A stretch of DNA of 64,000 bases from Candidatus Brocadiia bacterium (GCA_050015075.1 JBEKCB010000005.1:137436-201435); one strand, 5' to 3'; positions 23,399 through 32,270 are shown, counted from the stretch's first letter. Translations and numbers: made by a program. Notes: generated by a model from the sequence alone, not told the origin.

Positions 23399-24028
23399 CT
23401 ATGCGCCGTGGTATCGTTTCTTTACGGTCGCCGGACCCTGATGCCCTACGGAGCGGGCGATCTGGTCAAGCCGTTGTACGCCGATGAAGCCGTGATATTT
23501 CGCCGCCAGCGAGCGAAGACGGGCATAGCTTTTGGTCGGCGTAACCTTGAGAAGCTCGGCGACGTCCCGGTCGTCCTTGGCGTCGAAGATGGCCAGCTTC
23601 ATGCAAACCAGGTGATCCCGCGGAACGACGGGCACGGCGAAAGGACCGATGTGAAGGCGTTTGCGCTGTCGTCGCGCGGCCCGGACGGCATCGGCGAATA
23701 GCCCCGACAAATGCGGGTGCCGGTCTATGAAGTCAACGGCGATTCCCGACGTCCGTACTCCGCACCCGCCGATATCCAGACTCTTGACTTTGTACCCTTT
23801 ATCCGAAGCGATTACCGCAAGATCGCGCTCGCGCCCATAAGGCACCGCGAAATTAACTTCCTTCGTGAGTCCTTGCCCTTCAGCGGGAACATAACTCCAC
23901 ACTGCCAGCCGGCCGGCGAGAGCAAATGGCGTACGGGCTTCGCGCAAAATCGTGAGACCCGCCAAAAGCGACTTCTCGGCATCAAACCGAAGAGAGGACA
24001 TGTCGGTCTGCTTCCGATATCTCGCCAC
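23399..24028 (-). CDS. nucleotidyltransferase-fold protein (DUF6036/AbiEii-like), degenerate motif
   Basis: FALAGRLAV...TKEVNFAV, VDFI, LVCMKL...KDDRDV; RBS GAAGGAG; lower GC. Confidence 0.6.
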   Translation of the reverse strand: MARYRKQTDMSSLRFDAEKSLLAGLTILREARTPFALAGRLAVWSYVPAEGQGLTKEVNFAVPYGRERDLAVIASDKGYKVKSLDIGGCGVRTSGIAVDFIDRHPHLSGLFADAVRAARRQRKRLHIGPFAVPVVPRDHLVCMKLAIFDAKDDRDVAELLKVTPTKSYARLRSLAAKYHGFIGVQRLDQIARSVGHQGPATVKKRYHGA

Positions 24029-26093: not shown

Positions 26094-26158
26094 GATGAAG
26101 GCTTAAGAACGGCGGCAGATTATGAGCCGTCTTTATCCTTCATCCTTGAATTTCACTT
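26094..26158. repeat. degenerate inverted heptamer repeats (GATGAAG / CTTCATC type)
   Basis: GATGAAG GCTTAAG ... CTTTATC CTTCATC CTTGAAT in the divergent intergenic region. Confidence 0.4.
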
Positions 26159-26401
26159 TACAAACGGGATTCCGATGGTCAAAATACGATATAGTATGGC
26201 TGACCGTCACGCGCGCGCAGCGTTCTGCGCGCGATAGGTTGGGTTGTCTGAGGAATTTCAGATAATCTCGTGTTTGAAAGCCGACTGTCCTTGGGAGGAC
26301 GGTCAAGTGGGAAATCCCGGATTACACGGCTTAAGCCTGCGCGCCGCAGCGGCGACGAGAACCGGGCGTCCCGCGCTGCGGCCATCTTTCGCGGACCCGT
26401 T

Positions 26402-29400
26402 ATGAACTCCAAAGAACGCCGAAGCAATGAGCCGTTGCAGCTCTCCTCGGAAGCGACCGCCGACTTCCGAGTGCTGGTGGAGAACCTCGCCGAGCCGGTC
26501 GTGATCATGGACCGCGCCGGCACGATCCGCTTCATGAACCCGCGCGCGGAGCGGATGCTGGTGCTGGGGCTCAAGGAACAGGTCGAAGCGTACCTGAAAA
26601 ACCCGTCCCACCGACAACCGGACAGCCAAGTCCGATTCCGTGTCGACCGCTTCGGCGACCTGGTCCTGCGAATCCACATTTCCAATGTCCCCTGGCAGGG
26701 CCAGCCGGCGATGCAGGTGTCGCTGAGGAACGTAACACACTACGTCACGCCCGCACAACGCTTCTCGGAGGAGACCGCGCAGTTCAATGGGGACAACGGC
26801 GGCTCGCAGAGATCGCTCGAGCAACTCGAGGCGCGGTTACAGGATCTCGCCGCGGAACGCGACAACGTTTACGCTGCGACTGCGCAGCGGCTCGCACAGG
26901 AGACCGCCCAGTTCCAAAAAAACCAGCAGGAGGCGCAGGCGCAGCGCGAACGGCTGGAGGCGCAGTTGAAAGAACTCGCCGCGGAGAAAGAACGCATCGA
27001 GCAGTCGCTCCGCGCCGAACTGGCGCAACTTCGCGAAGCCGCGGCCAAGGCGGAGCCGGCCAACGAGGACCTCGTCCAGGCCCGGCGGACGATGGACGAA
27101 TTAGCCGCCGCCCGCCGCGAACTCGAGGCGCGCACCGGACATAGCCCCGAGGAGTGGTCTTCATTGAGGCAGCTCCAGGCGGACGCAGCGGAAGCGGAGA
27201 GCCGGCTCGCGGCGGCGCAGAAGAAGTCCAGAGCGGCGGCCGAGAAGGCGAGCGCCGAGCGGCGCCAGGCGCAGGATGAGGCGCAGTCACTCCGCGAGCG
27301 GCTCGCCGAGGCCGAGCGCGCAACGGCGGAGTCGGCCGAGCGCAATCGGCGGCTCGACGAACAGGTGAATCAGCTCGCCGCCGAGCGCGAGAACGCCGCC
27401 CGACAGCTTCACGATGCGATCGCTGCGCGGGACCGGTCGCAGGACGAAATCGCGCGGTTGCAGCAACTGCTCGACGCAGCCGGCCGCGCGCAGGAGGAAT
27501 TGAGCGCCGGCCGCCAGGCGCTCGAGGAGCGGGCCCGGCAGCAGGCCGACGAACTCCTGAAGTCCGGCGCGCAACTTCAGGCCGAGTCCGCGAGCCGCGC
27601 CGAGGCGGAGAAGACCGTCGCACAACTTCAGGCGCAGGTCGCCGACGGCGACAACGCCAAGGCGGAAAGTGAACGCCTTCGGCAGCAGATTGCTGAAACC
27701 GAGAGCGCGGGCAAGAATCTGCATGCCGAGCAGCAGAGGCTGACGGAGCGCGCGCAACAGGCTGAGGAAGCGTCGGCAAAGCTCCGGGACCAGCTCCGGC
27801 AGCAACTCGAGGAACTCCAGCGTCTGCGGGATGCAAACAGCTTGATGGAGCAAGAGCGGGCGGCATCCGCGCGGGTGGCCGATGAACTGCGGGCCCGCAG
27901 TCAGACCATCGAGGGACGTGCGAAAGAGCAGGCCGACGAGCTGACCAAGGCGCTCGAGCAACTTCGGGCGGAAATCGCCCAGCGCGAAAAACTGACAGCA
28001 GAGGCTTCTCAACTCCGTGACGAGGCCGCCGAGTCCCGGCGCGTGCGCGAGGAGTTGGAGACACGGCTCCTCCAGCTTCAAGGACCCTTGGCGGAGCTGG
28101 CCCGCGCGCAGGAGCAATCCAAGGCAGAGCTTGCGAAAGAGACCGAGCTCCGGGCGCGAGCCGTGGCGGAAGTCCAGCAGCTCCGGCAAGAGGTTTCTGC
28201 GGCCCGGCAGGCGCAGGCACAGCTTGCCGCGCAACGGGCGGAGCTTCAAGTACAGGTCGAGGAGCTGACCGCGCCTCGGAAGCGGCCCGATGAGGAACTG
28301 GAGAAGGAGAAGGCGGCGCAGCTCGAGTTGGCGGAACTTACCGCCCGGTGCCTCCGGTTCCAGGAAGAGATCAAGAAACTGGCGGCATCGCAGGAACGGG
28401 CGAACGTGCAACTTCAAGTTGAGTACGCAGAGCGAAAACGAACGGAAGAAGAAAACGAGCAACTGCGCGAGCACGTCGCCGAGTCCAAGCGGGCTGCAGA
28501 GTACCTCAGGAATCAACGGAACGTGCTCGAGGGAGAGGTGAAACGATGCGGCGACGAAATCGCCGCGCTCACGCAACAACTTCGGCACGAAGGGGGCCAG
28601 GGGAAGCAGGCCCAAGTGGAAAATGAGCAGCTCCGGCAAGCGCAGGCAGGCTGGGAGGCCCGGTATTTCCAGGTCCAAGAGCAACTGAAGGAACTGGCCC
28701 GCGCACGGGAGGAGGTCAAGGCGCAACTGGAGAAGGAAGTCGGGCAGCGGACGCGAGCCGAGGCGGCAGTCCAGCAGCTCCGGCAGGAGGTCTCTGCGGC
28801 CCAGCGGGCGCGGGCAGAACTCGCCGCTCAGCAGACGCAGCTTCAGGCGCAGAGGAGGGAACTCTCTGTCTTCCAGGGGAACTCCCAGGCGGAGTTGGAG
28901 AGAGAGATTGTCGAACGAAAACGAGCCCAGGGCGAAGTGGAGCAGCTTCGCCACGAGCGTTTCGTCCTCCAGAAGGCGCAAGAGGAACTTGAATTGCGCC
29001 ACACGCAGTTCCAAACGCAACTGGATGACGACGCGAGGGCGCTGGACGAAGCGCGGCTGAAGCTTCAAGAGGAACACTCCCAGCGGGAGCTGTCAGAAAA
29101 GCAGAATGAACAGCTGTCGCAGGAAATCGGTCAGGTCAACCGAGCGCTGCAGGAGTCGGAGGCCAAACGCTCCGAACTGGAAGCGGCAACGACCGCCCGC
29201 CCGGCTGAGACGGAGAAGCTCGTGAAGCAGGTTGGCCAGGAGGCCGCCGAGCGCGAACAACTGCAGGCAAGGCAGCACGACCTCGAACTGGAGCTGGCCG
29301 AGCTCAGACAGGCGGAGGCAAAATGGCAGCGGCAGCGCGACGAACTGGAAGCGCTGGTGCAATTGAGGAGCGAGGCAATGGAAAAGACCGATCAGCAGCT

Positions 29401-30397
29401 TCAGACGGAGCTGGCGGCCCGGAAGAAGGCCGAGGAGGAAAACCTGGCCCTGCAGCAGGCCGTTGCCGAGGCCGCCCGGATGAGCGAGGAATTCGGAGGC
29501 GAGCGCGCGCGTCTTGGAGAACAGGTGAAAGAACTCTCGGACGCCCTGAACGAAACCAAGGCACACGTCCTGGTCGAAATGGACGAGCGCGCCGACGCCG
29601 AGAAGGAAAAAAAGCAGCTCGAGCAGGATGTCGAGCAACTCAAACGAGCCGACGAGGAATTGCGGACGCAACGGCTGCAGCTCATGGGGCGACTGAAGGA
29701 CAACAGCGAGGGACTCTCCAGGGTTCGGGAGCAACTCCAGGAGGAAGCCGTAGATCGGAAACGGGCTCGTGAGGAGAACGACAAGCTGCGCCAGGATCTG
29801 GGCGAGGCCTTGCGCGCAACGCAGGAGGCGAAGAAGAGCGCGGAGGAGTTTGAAGCGCGCGCGCGCGCGCACGCCGAGGAACTGATGAAGGCCAACGAAG
29901 CGCTGCGACAGGAAGCCGCCGAACGCCAACGCGCCCGGGAGGAAAACGACCAACTCCGGAGCCTGACGGCCGAGACCAAAGCGGCCTTGGAGGAATCGGC
30001 GACGCAGCGCGACGAGTATAAGAGTTGGGCCGAACAGCGCGCAGAAGAACTGCGGCGGCAAATCGCCCTGCAGCAGCAAGCCCAGGAAGAGAACCAGCAA
30101 CTTCAGCAGAAACTCGCCAAGTCCATGCAGTCCGTGGAGACCTTCAGGGCAGGATTCGAGGCGCTCAAAGGCCTGGCGAAAGCGAGCGCCGACGAAACAG
30201 CCAGGGAGAACGAAGCCCTTCGCCAGAAGCTGGCCGAGTACGAGCGGGAAGGACAGTCGCTGGGCACGGTCCTGAACGACCTCTCCGCGTCAGGGAGCAA
30301 GTTCCTCGGCGCGCTCGAGAAGTTCAAAGCGCACGGTCGGGAGCCGCCTCGCCCTGAGACCCCGGGCGCAGCGTCCGAGGCCGGGGAGAATCGCTGA
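26402..30397 (+). CDS. PAS-domain protein with very long repetitive coiled coil (56-aa period)
   Basis: FRVLVENLAEPVVIMDRAGTIRFMNPRAERML...WQGQPAMQVSLRNVT (PAS/PAC), then ~1200 aa of E/Q/R/L/A coiled coil. Confidence 0.88.
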   Translation: MNSKERRSNEPLQLSSEATADFRVLVENLAEPVVIMDRAGTIRFMNPRAERMLVLGLKEQVEAYLKNPSHRQPDSQVRFRVDRFGDLVLRIHISNVPWQGQPAMQVSLRNVTHYVTPAQRFSEETAQFNGDNGGSQRSLEQLEARLQDLAAERDNVYAATAQRLAQETAQFQKNQQEAQAQRERLEAQLKELAAEKERIEQSLRAELAQLREAAAKAEPANEDLVQARRTMDELAAARRELEARTGHSPEEWSSLRQLQADAAEAESRLAAAQKKSRAAAEKASAERRQAQDEAQSLRERLAEAERATAESAERNRRLDEQVNQLAAERENAARQLHDAIAARDRSQDEIARLQQLLDAAGRAQEELSAGRQALEERARQQADELLKSGAQLQAESASRAEAEKTVAQLQAQVADGDNAKAESERLRQQIAETESAGKNLHAEQQRLTERAQQAEEASAKLRDQLRQQLEELQRLRDANSLMEQERAASARVADELRARSQTIEGRAKEQADELTKALEQLRAEIAQREKLTAEASQLRDEAAESRRVREELETRLLQLQGPLAELARAQEQSKAELAKETELRARAVAEVQQLRQEVSAARQAQAQLAAQRAELQVQVEELTAPRKRPDEELEKEKAAQLELAELTARCLRFQEEIKKLAASQERANVQLQVEYAERKRTEEENEQLREHVAESKRAAEYLRNQRNVLEGEVKRCGDEIAALTQQLRHEGGQGKQAQVENEQLRQAQAGWEARYFQVQEQLKELARAREEVKAQLEKEVGQRTRAEAAVQQLRQEVSAAQRARAELAAQQTQLQAQRRELSVFQGNSQAELEREIVERKRAQGEVEQLRHERFVLQKAQEELELRHTQFQTQLDDDARALDEARLKLQEEHSQRELSEKQNEQLSQEIGQVNRALQESEAKRSELEAATTARPAETEKLVKQVGQEAAEREQLQARQHDLELELAELRQAEAKWQRQRDELEALVQLRSEAMEKTDQQLQTELAARKKAEEENLALQQAVAEAARMSEEFGGERARLGEQVKELSDALNETKAHVLVEMDERADAEKEKKQLEQDVEQLKRADEELRTQRLQLMGRLKDNSEGLSRVREQLQEEAVDRKRAREENDKLRQDLGEALRATQEAKKSAEEFEARARAHAEELMKANEALRQEAAERQRAREENDQLRSLTAETKAALEESATQRDEYKSWAEQRAEELRRQIALQQQAQEENQQLQQKLAKSMQSVETFRAGFEALKGLAKASADETARENEALRQKLAEYEREGQSLGTVLNDLSASGSKFLGALEKFKAHGREPPRPETPGAASEAGENR

Positions 30398-30659: not shown

Positions 30660-30694
30660 ACTGAAAGCTAAGCAATTGAAAGCAGAATTGTCAA
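30660..30694 (-). promoter_or_regulatory. candidate promoter/operator of the Cys-rich peptide gene
   Basis: TTGACA (overlapping the upstream stop)-18bp-TAGCTT; GCTTTCA direct repeat twice. Confidence 0.45.
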
Positions 30695-31833
30695 GACTTT
30701 TTCGGCCCCTTGAACCGCCGCGTGGGCACCGTCTCCGCGCGCATTCCGGTCGCGACCGCGACGGGAACCGCGCCGCCGCCGGCTTGCTTCAGGGCGGAAA
30801 TGACTTCCTTCTCCCGGCCGGGCGCGACCGAGATGAAACTGTTCGTCCCCAGCACGATCTTGCTGCCCAGCGCGCCGCCGCCTGTGGCGGCGGTGATCAA
30901 CGCCTCGATCTCGGGAACGTTGTATCCCAGGTAATCCCGGAGCAACTCGTGCTGCTTGTCCATCATCTCGACCAGCCGGTCGTCGTCAATCCCGTACTCG
31001 CTCTCCAGCAACTCGAAGGCCTGCCGGCTGAGATCGCGCATCGCCAGCTGCGCGTACACGACGCCGGCATCCGCGTCCGGCAGTTCCTTGAGGCGCGGGA
31101 TCACCTCGTCGTCGGAGGCGTCGCGCAGGTTGAACCCCTCCTGCATTTTCACGACTGCGCTCAGCGCCGAGAGCGTGGCCCGGACCGCCTGCGCGTGCCG
31201 GTCGAGGCCATTCCCGCCCGGCCCGGCGCAGCAGCTCACCAGGCCCGGCAGCGCGCGGTCAATCAGCGCCACCTGGGACGGCCTGGCCGCCGGGAGCGCC
31301 GGGTCGCCGGGCTCCAGGAACAACATCCCGCCCAGAATGCAGGCGTACGTCTCCGGGATCCACCACGCGGTGCGCGGCTCGTCCCGATAGGCCCGGCAGG
31401 CGGCCTGCGCCGTCTCATTGGCCGAGAGCTCGGCCAGTCGCTCATCCAGCGAGAGCAGCGCAACGGCCCACGCGGCGAGCAGCGCCGGGCTGTCCGGCAG
31501 CGCATCCGTCCAGGGCGCGCGGGAAATGACGTGAAAATCGAATCCGGCCTGAAGTTTTTCTTTCCGCGGCGGCGCCGCGCGAAACGCCTTTGAAAGCGCC
31601 GGCATCTGCGGGAACGCTTCCGCCGCTTCGCCCGGCTCGAACGACATCGGCTCCGGAATCCACGGCGCGCTCACCGAAAACCGGCCGTCGCTCCGAGGCG
31701 TCGCCGCAACGGCGGTGCGCAGGTCCAGCGCCAGCGTGACGGCCGGAAGGCCGAGGAAATACTGAAGGTCGCCGAACAGCCGGACCGGCCAGGGCACGGA
31801 GACGATGAGCGTTTTCCCCTGCTCGACGGTCAT
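30691..31833 (-). CDS. GHMP kinase (galactokinase-like) fold protein with degenerate motifs
   Basis: VPWPVRLFGDLQYFLGLPAVTLALD, YACILGG, MMDKQHELLRDYL...PEIEALI...GALGSKI follow the GHMP layout. Confidence 0.7.
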   Translation of the reverse strand: MTVEQGKTLIVSVPWPVRLFGDLQYFLGLPAVTLALDLRTAVAATPRSDGRFSVSAPWIPEPMSFEPGEAAEAFPQMPALSKAFRAAPPRKEKLQAGFDFHVISRAPWTDALPDSPALLAAWAVALLSLDERLAELSANETAQAACRAYRDEPRTAWWIPETYACILGGMLFLEPGDPALPAARPSQVALIDRALPGLVSCCAGPGGNGLDRHAQAVRATLSALSAVVKMQEGFNLRDASDDEVIPRLKELPDADAGVVYAQLAMRDLSRQAFELLESEYGIDDDRLVEMMDKQHELLRDYLGYNVPEIEALITAATGGGALGSKIVLGTNSFISVAPGREKEVISALKQAGGGAVPVAVATGMRAETVPTRRFKGPKKS

Positions 31834-32270
31834 TGAGGCTCCGCCTTGAACGGTCCCTCGAACGCCGTGTCGAAGTCGAAACCGCCCGCGAAATCCTCCC
31901 GCGCGTCGCTTTCCGTCTTCCCCAACAGCCCGTGCTCGACCAGGTTGAAGACGATCTCGCCGAAATCCTCCGTGCGCCGGACGCGCCAGGTCCGGAAAAC
32001 GGTCGGCGCCAGCGGTCCGAACATTTGCGCGGCGTACTCGCGAATGCCGTTGAGGAGTTCCTGCCCGCTGACGTGCCGCTGCGCCGGCGTCAGGTCCGGG
32101 GCGTTGCGCCCGAGCGCCTTCTGCGTGTACGTCAGCGCGTCGTAGATGAAAAGATATGCCGCCAGTTCGTAGCGCGAATCGCGGGAAAGGATCTGCTGCC
32201 GGATGGCGGTCTCCGCCGGCACCGCCTCCGGCTTCGCTGCGGGACTCTGCGGAGCTTTTTCCTCAGTCAT
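31830..32270 (-). CDS. Minf_1886 / TIGR04138-type PVC-superphylum conserved protein
   Basis: DSRYELAAYLF, RHVSGQELLNGIREYAAQMFGPLA...W.VRRTEDFGEIVFNLVE. Confidence 0.85.
   Translation of the reverse strand: MTEEKAPQSPAAKPEAVPAETAIRQQILSRDSRYELAAYLFIYDALTYTQKALGRNAPDLTPAQRHVSGQELLNGIREYAAQMFGPLAPTVFRTWRVRRTEDFGEIVFNLVEHGLLGKTESDAREDFAGGFDFDTAFEGPFKAEPQ

Follow-up and report, generated by a model that had tools for sequence, protein, structure and literature searches.

A PAS-headed coiled-coil protein from a Candidatus Brocadiia bacterium with a 56-residue repeat resembling the long linkers that follow PAS domains

PAS domains, together with their helical linkers, form the standard wiring of signalling in bacteria. 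We have analysed a gene within a 64,000-nucleotide (nt) stretch of DNA (the window) from Candidatus Brocadiia bacterium (GCA_050015075.1 JBEKCB010000005.1:137436-201435), a planctomycete, a group known for unusual cell organisation. The open reading frame (ORF) at 26402-30397 on the plus strand extends from an ATG to a stop codon and encodes a protein of 1331 amino acids (aa), P0001, in which a single PAS domain is followed by a coiled-coil rod of ~1,150 residues carrying a repeated 56-residue unit similar to long post-PAS linkers, and by no output domain. Among described proteins, the short LOV proteins (PpSB1-LOV, SBW25-LOV) likewise consist of a PAS core followed only by helix, the J-alpha coiled coil, with no effector, and they rank with the top structural matches of the P0001 head with its exit helix (template modelling score, TM-score, on the query of 0.54-0.55, Foldseek). 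They are, however, only ~130-170 aa long and possess a flavin-binding Cys motif, whereas P0001 has no such invariant motif and its helix is ~1,150 residues long. In FrzS/AglZ-type proteins of Myxococcus, a receiver domain, in place of PAS, heads a long coiled-coil rod that lacks an enzymatic output and is not known to be a regular linker-derived array. Scy is built on a long non-heptad repeat. The coiled-coil-rich cytoskeletal proteins crescentin, FilP and Scy are, like P0001, long non-enzymatic rods but, unlike P0001, have neither a PAS head nor a relation to signalling linkers. As outlined in PMC12963549, the pseudokinases PsmA of Streptomyces and DivL of Caulobacter are PAS-bearing two-component parts serving as scaffolds, acting by protein-protein contacts in polarity or cytoskeleton complexes and not by phosphotransfer; on that account these proteins keep an inactive kinase core, whereas P0001 keeps only the linker. 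Full-text literature searches, the sole basis for regarding this architecture as new, returned no description of a PAS head joined to a domain-free tandem linker array.

For the repeated unit itself, the closest described element is the S-helix, which, as presented by Anantharaman, Balaji & Aravind (2006; PMC1592074), comprises ~40 residues or 5 heptads between two signalling domains and has the signature 'ERT', which occupies positions c, d and e in its central heptad, non-polar residues being avoided at R and T. Compared with that presentation, the S-helix and the linkers joining PAS to PAS or PAS to HisKA share with P0001 a heptad coiled coil that has polar core residues and starts directly after a PAS domain, and the P0001 unit is collinear with the DIT...LE..V.ERT.EL..AN...ERK linkers of PAS proteins. 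The S-helix so described occurs once between domains, whereas the P0001 module is repeated ~14-20 times with no domains between the copies and none downstream; the S-helix has the ERT signature, which the P0001 units have lost. The P0001 unit spans 56 residues in 8 heptads, and only the first coil segment follows a domain. By sequence, then, the unit is not an S-helix in the strict sense.

The features of the gene and its upstream region, all on the plus strand, are the following.

26157-26185, plus strand: pair of promoter-like hexamers within the 376-nt intergenic spacer upstream of the gene, matching the consensus at 9 of 12 positions (consensus match only)
26402-30397, plus strand: P0001 gene, the only plus strand gene amid minus strand neighbours
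26447-26794, plus strand: minimal PAS domain with flanking helices (Pfam PAS_8, AlphaFold2, Foldseek, invariant columns)
26738-26995, plus strand: tandem 43-aa duplication of the PAS-exit segment (residues 113-155 and 156-198), 19 of 43 residues identical
26885-28726, plus strand: degenerate part of the rod, residues 162-775, with six 56-aa units recognisable by profile
28036-28255, plus strand: first copy of an internal 220-nt duplication (DNA repeat comparison)
28633-28852, plus strand: second copy of the 220-nt duplication (DNA repeat comparison)
28727-30070, plus strand: eight 56-aa units in exact register, residues 776-1223 (motif spacing, autocorrelation, profile)
30071-30331, plus strand: conserved helical tail module, residues 1224-1310 (alignment A2, AlphaFold2, dN/dS)
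30332-30394, plus strand: Pro-rich disordered C-terminal end, residues 1311-1331 (predicted local distance difference test, pLDDT, <50)

The rod, extending from about residue 136 to 1290, is composed to 71% of A, E, Q, R and L and contains 6 prolines. A scan of the a/d register reveals blocks of constant heptad phase at residues 147-393, 399-622 and 626-1150. BLOSUM62 autocorrelation over residues 130-1290 peaks at a lag of 56 (0.66 as compared with -0.22 ± 0.06 in shuffled sequences, z = 14.4), the next lags being 112, 224 and 168. A profile derived from the eight 8-heptad units in exact register detects six more units scoring at least 12 bits in residues 130-775, a score reached by 0 units in 200 shuffles that preserve heptad phase (maximum 9.1 bits). 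The tally is therefore 14 clear units and one partial unit (1225-1271). The 18-20 units given in a preliminary description of the sequence agree with rod length, into which ~20.6 units would fit, and so represent a length estimate and not a count. The exact 56-aa spacing of four motifs in that description was recovered at residues 1000, 1056, 1112 and 1168; its similar upstream motifs at 776 and 832 are also in register, while the one at 671 sits 105 and not 112 residues before 776, that is, one heptad off. In the degenerate part of the rod the heptad register shifts twice, around residues 395 and 625, and Pro-containing breaks occur as well. When 11 units are aligned (the eight in register together with those at 521, 577 and 671), E4 (d), R8 (a) and L18 (d) are invariant, with R36 (a) present in 7/11 and N15 (a) in 5/11. 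At the DNA level, Tandem Repeats Finder (TRF) detected no tandem array in the P0001 gene; the DNA similarity previously noticed between 28171 and 28768 falls inside the 220-nt duplication, whose copies are 71% identical and lie 597 nt (199 aa) apart.

The relationship of this unit to signalling linkers was investigated with a re-phased profile. As the top three matches of the un-phased profile in the own genome were PAS linkers aligned at positions 21-56, the 56-aa unit was begun at its position 21, a shift of 20 residues. Among 105 non-family proteins drawn from the head-profile search of metagenomic representatives, mostly PAS signalling proteins from which the family-like P0045, P0046 and P0050 had been dropped, the re-phased profile scores at least 12 bits in 10 forward and 1 reversed sequences, and at least 15 bits in 9 and 0, respectively. 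No gap interrupts the alignments over their 45-54 positions; they open at the PAS-terminal DIT or DIS, from which the aligned linkers run through 'LE..V.ERT.EL..AN' to 'EI.ERK.AEE'. In the best of them, the PAS-end 'DIT-ERKRAEE' is located at unit positions 21-32 and the 'ERT' heptad at 45-47; the ERT arginine corresponds to unit position 46, a 'd' position, consistent with the S-helix register. A control profile, made from the 60-aa coiled-coil repeat of paralogue C26, gave 0 matches of at least 12 bits in the same set and none above 4.9. When the 24,067 non-family ORFs of the own genome are ranked, two histidine kinases come first through their PAS-to-HisKA linkers, at 19.5 and 15.3 bits compared with a reversed maximum of 10.2, while the SMC protein reaches 2.8 bits. 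Of 30 own-genome ORFs flagged as generic coiled coil, 29 score no more than 8.1 bits, and the thirtieth is one of the two top kinase linkers. The control repeat, own-genome and reversed-sequence results thus show the unit to be specifically like the long linker that follows PAS domains and not a generic coiled coil, albeit at modest scores. The refuting condition named in the preliminary description, a repeat profile no closer to kinase linkers than to generic coiled coils, is not borne out. The linker origin proposed in the preliminary description stands as to the resemblance of the re-phased unit to PAS linkers; its equation of the unit's own ERKRAEE with the whole linker is not supported by the best alignments, and the ERT signature is missing in 11 of 11 units. 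A sequence search of the PDB with the unit profile returned chance or low-complexity matches only (DC-SIGNR neck repeat, Cep57, FosB) and no solved long PAS linker.

No output domain accompanies this rod. Besides PAS, no significant domain was detected in P0001 by Pfam at E≤1; HisKA/HATPase_c, GGDEF, cyclase and HAMP domains are absent by Pfam at this level and by NCBIfam. The SMC model of NCBIfam, TIGR02168, matches at 64.7 bits against a cut-off of 567 and at coiled-coil positions only; Pfam finds no SMC, ATPase or hinge match, and the C-terminus is modelled as a single helix. Filament (PF00038) and Rod_CreS (PF19220) do not match P0001 at E≤1 (Pfam), nor does PADLOC recognise a defence system in it. 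The most hydrophobic 19-aa window scores 0.96 on the Kyte-Doolittle scale and lies within the PAS domain, providing no transmembrane (TM) segment. The Pfam, NCBIfam and hydropathy results thus agree with the earlier statement that kinase, cyclase, ATPase and TM segments are missing, and a search by Pfam, NCBIfam and AlphaFold2 for a hidden catalytic or SMC domain found none. In AlphaFold2, residues 1100-1331 form one continuous helix to ~1310 followed by a disordered end, which, together with the PAS_8 match and the heptad scan, confirms that one PAS domain is followed by continuous coiled coil. The tail contains the motif ...VETFRAGFE.L...AKASADE...FLGALEKFK, common to members of the subfamily including metagenomic ones, and is the best-conserved stretch between orthologues, with an identity of 0.89 in the 56-residue window beginning at residue 1233.

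The PAS head is recognised by PAS_8 (PF13188) at 25.3 bits against a gathering cut-off of 21.8, PF00989 falling just under its own cut-off (20.3 and 22.6 bits). An AlphaFold2 model based on 14 family heads has block-mean pLDDT values of 82-93 over residues 21-110 and comprises an N-cap helix (16-27), two strands, two helices, three strands and a long exit helix (112-131); according to AlphaFold2 and Foldseek, the head contains the five-stranded antiparallel sheet of PAS domains. Foldseek matched 60 PDB chains at E≤0.001 and, among those listed, all are PAS, LOV, heme-PAS or kinase sensor domains, with TM-scores of 0.42-0.56; the ESM Atlas, which contains no structure of P0001, yielded only generic PAS clusters at 0.88, under the 0.9 level. 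V111 and T112 ('NVT', DIT-like) are invariant in the 14 family members and the exit helix begins directly there, at the place where many PAS domains have 'DIT'. Since no Cys or His occurs among the invariant head columns of these members, no cofactor is suggested for the head. The 43-aa duplication that follows is visible in the DNA as repeat families D2, D3, D6 and D7 at a spacing of 129 nt and is also present in paralogues C20 and C8.

P0001 belongs to a family defined by this head. A head-profile search identified 7 genes in the own genome, the same number in G001, a genome of the same genus, and 2 in a second genus, all at E≤1e-40; the three genomes that hold these 16 genes represent one bacterial family of the Brocadiia class. 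None was detected in a third genus (genome 92% complete), and two weak matches, at ~1e-13, were all that came from the 57 further genomes searched in this order or class. Among 5.8 billion clustered proteins, just one of similar length has the P0001 head. In 1.84 billion representatives, 36 sequences, many of them fragments, match the head profile at E≤1e-30, of which 33 have no Pfam domain beyond the PAS type, the exceptions being P0023 (Ser/Thr kinase), P0029 (REC-PAS-PAS-GGDEF) and P0003 (an extra PAS_3). The domain scan covered 54 of the top 56 metagenomic matches, fragments P0051 and P0054 being left out; four members at ~1e-30 to 1e-20 (P0038, P0042, P0046, P0050) combine the head with PAS_3 and coil, and the remaining scanned matches from there on are mostly ordinary PAS kinases and cyclases. 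As far as searched, the family is confined to one family of uncultured peat planctomycetes. A sister architecture, consisting of a family-like PAS head, PAS_3 and a coiled coil without output, is represented by metagenomic P0064 and P0091 in addition to the four members just named, and P0046 and P0050 contain units of the 56-aa type scoring 13-27 bits against the unit profile.

Over their first 230-390 residues, paralogues share 46-62% identity. The same 56-aa unit, in the same register, occurs in paralogue C20 (1152 aa; G000:C20:68988-72494, locus L011:992-4447, minus strand), which has seven consecutive units at residues 465-856; units 521-576 and 577-632 have one and the same protein sequence, suggesting that amplification or gene conversion was recent. 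The 56-aa period also occurs in a G002 member and in metagenomic members, a distribution which, with C20, suggests a shared ancestral unit and favours a linker-derived rod. C13, C23 and C26 share only the head with P0001, their rod periods being 91, 137/239 and 60, and C8 is a short form of 309 aa. C26 (1612 aa; G000:C26:49244-54109, locus L015:1072-5907, plus strand) has ~12 near-identical 60-aa units (ETLKAGSESHADALARAREELAEA...), a period that is not a multiple of 7, with the final units shortened to 53 aa. The two G002 members and G001:C119 have no domain besides the head. C1 (1560 aa in a single ORF; G000:C1:137228-141919, locus L016:1038-5717, plus strand) consists of the PAS head, a ~450-aa coil and a Ser/Thr kinase (596-845), followed by a TM segment, TPR and an FGE-sulfatase domain, and the head-to-kinase order is the same in metagenomic P0023. 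Because the head is fused to a Ser/Thr kinase in C1 and P0023 and lies within the REC-PAS-GGDEF protein P0029, it is considered a genuine signalling module. The N-terminal peptide of C1, MGEQRSKE, recurs as MGEQRSEE directly before the kinase, and it looks as if the head-plus-coil module was placed before a kinase gene through duplication of the 5' end of the gene.

P0001 is under purifying selection. Its orthologue in G001 is ~80% identical from end to end, the only indels being a 38-aa deletion and a 4-aa insertion (net 34 aa), and at a synonymous divergence (dS) of 0.25 the ratio of non-synonymous to synonymous divergence (dN/dS) is <1 in every segment. dN/dS is 0.43 overall, 0.61 in the PAS region, 0.34-0.51 in the rod and 0.29 in the tail (1224-1331), as compared with 0.12 for aconitase, 0.30-0.38 for two neighbouring genes without a Pfam family and 0.49 for paralogue C20. 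P0001 DNA occurs in 24 listed peat or wetland metagenome runs, 16 of which contain half or more of the sampled words; none of the 24 is recorded as RNA. In four peat runs, contigs include long pieces of P0001 without differences, and no indels are listed. In three of these four runs, a contig joins 27058 to 27380, skipping 321 nt (107 codons, in frame); there is one such contig per run, with sides of 30-62 nt, and strain variation, a paralogue or the assembly could account for it.

We propose, at a probability slightly above even, that P0001 is a non-enzymatic, PAS-headed dimeric rod that acts as a signal-responsive scaffold or tether. P0001 would be cytoplasmic. Its minimal PAS head would serve for sensing or dimerisation and continue, through the exit helix, directly into the rod. 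The rod would have arisen by tandem amplification of the 56-residue (8-heptad) module, which is collinear with the long post-PAS linker of multi-PAS kinases (DIT - ERKRAEE - LE..V.ERT.EL..AN - EI.ERK.AEE). It may represent a stabilised derivative of a switch linker, in that the polar 'switch' arginine of ERT is not conserved while each unit retains an invariant polar core pair (E at d4, R at a8), often with Asn at a15. Two chains would probably coil around each other in parallel and in register, with paired PAS domains at one end, as in PAS kinases; the two-copy complex prediction for residues 1-260 (alignment A3; score 0.14, mark 0.42) carries no weight either way on dimerisation. At the far end, the conserved helical tail could provide a partner- or membrane-binding (docking) site, and the PAS head might modulate rod assembly, partner binding or placement. 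Taking a rise of 0.148 nm per residue (our own figure), the extended rod would measure ~170 nm. A bolder version, in which P0001 is a new bacterial cytoskeletal or tethering element made from two-component hardware, a poly-linker rod of ~170 nm whose assembly, stiffness or binding of partners is gated by the PAS head, is doubtful. In that version, the rod could even be a natural long-range conformational 'wire', and C1 does put ~450 residues of such coil between the family head and a Ser/Thr kinase.

Several observations weigh against a scaffold derived from signalling linkers. The similarity to linkers is modest, at 14-25 bits, and could have arisen by convergence between parallel coils rich in E, R and K. 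ERT is found at positions 45-47 in 0/11 units of P0001 and 0/6 units of C20, position 46 being Leu in 4/11 P0001 units and Arg in 3/11. Run on the own genome, the un-phased profile did not reach significance, with 5 forward and 3 reversed matches of at least 10 bits. A crude first test, using raw scores without composition correction on 83-aa windows before HisKA, gave a mean of 11.2 for generic coiled-coil windows and 5.3 for the pre-HisKA windows; however, PAS-adjacent linkers made up 4 of the top 8 windows in the 'generic' set and most of the HisKA windows were non-helical, and the linker test was therefore redone. Other paralogues have rod periods of 60, 81, 91, 105, 112 and 137/239, so that rod length or coiled-coil character, and not linker sequence, may be what is selected. 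The dN/dS of 0.43 indicates weak constraint. Finally, charge periodicity of the kind driving staggered filament packing does not exceed that of shuffles, no peak at a period of at least 10 residues being above the 95th percentile of heptad-preserving shuffles.

Alternatively, P0001 could be a generic cytoskeletal coiled coil of the crescentin/FilP type, the PAS domain being an oligomerisation or polymerisation knob and the likeness to linkers convergent. The unrelated repeat periods of the other paralogues, the fast evolution of the rod and the lack of invariant Cys or His as cofactor residues in the head all agree with such an origin, as do weak Filament and crescentin-rod matches in paralogues and metagenomic relatives, which remain sub-threshold at 18-27 bits against cut-offs of 40 and 100. 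P0001 itself, however, has no such match at E≤1, its rod lacks the charge periodicity, and its unit is collinear with PAS linkers while the control coiled-coil repeat is not and SMC and other own-genome coiled coils score low; we regard a generic cytoskeletal coil as unlikely. Mimicry of kinase linkers by the unit would also be expected of a trans-acting regulator or decoy that forms heterodimers, through the PAS head and proximal coil, with paralogues or PAS kinases and titrates or relocates them. The identity shared with paralogues over their N-terminal regions, the short 309-aa C8 and the fusion of head and coil to a Ser/Thr kinase in C1 and P0023 are compatible with this role. The kinase-bearing members, however, belong to another subfamily with a short N-terminus and 28-36% identity to the P0001 head, there is no kinase gene beside the P0001 gene, a decoy does not need 1,150 residues, and the length of P0001 is kept between species to within a net 34 aa; a decoy is a rather improbable reading.

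That the ORF is decaying or functionless, a repeat kept open by chance in a GC-rich genome, is very improbable. The relatively high dN/dS, the lack of an RNA run on record for the sequence and the lack of homologues found beyond one bacterial family are what would be expected of such an ORF. On the other side, ~1,300 codons remain intact in two species despite a dS of 0.25 with dN/dS <1 throughout, the tail and PAS core are conserved, heptad phase is kept over >500 residues, the family numbers 16 genes in three genomes, and difference-free pieces occur in contigs from the four other peat runs.

With P0001 read as a linker-derived rod, a signalling linker has been copied ~14-20 times and the enzyme is gone, and a signalling part thus seems to have turned structural. 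If the rod is a working scaffold or tether, P0001 would show a cytoskeleton-like protein arising from signalling parts. The family would also offer a natural series in which to ask whether, and how far, coiled-coil linkers carry conformational signals: it comprises linker copies with a changed ERT position, most often to Leu, paralogue rods that differ in length and period, and one paralogue, C1, with a kinase at the end of its coil. P0001, for which function is here a prediction from sequence, should be of interest to those working on signalling linkers and on planctomycete cell biology.

The P0001 gene has an alternative in-frame start, a GTG at 26270 that would add 44 aa; either this or ATG 26402 may be the start used. 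Upstream, an aconitase gene lies on the opposite strand across the 376-nt spacer, and adjoining it is a 209-aa ORF (23399-24028, minus strand) that matches neither Pfam nor PADLOC. The downstream side has two genes without a Pfam family and the methionyl-tRNA synthetase (MetRS) gene, all on the minus strand, and the gene order around P0001 is conserved in G001. The two genes, at 30691-31833 (380 aa) and 31830-32270 (146 aa), overlap by 4 nt and are convergent with the P0001 gene; neither has a PADLOC match, and they are 89% and 86% identical, respectively, to their counterparts at the same position in G001.

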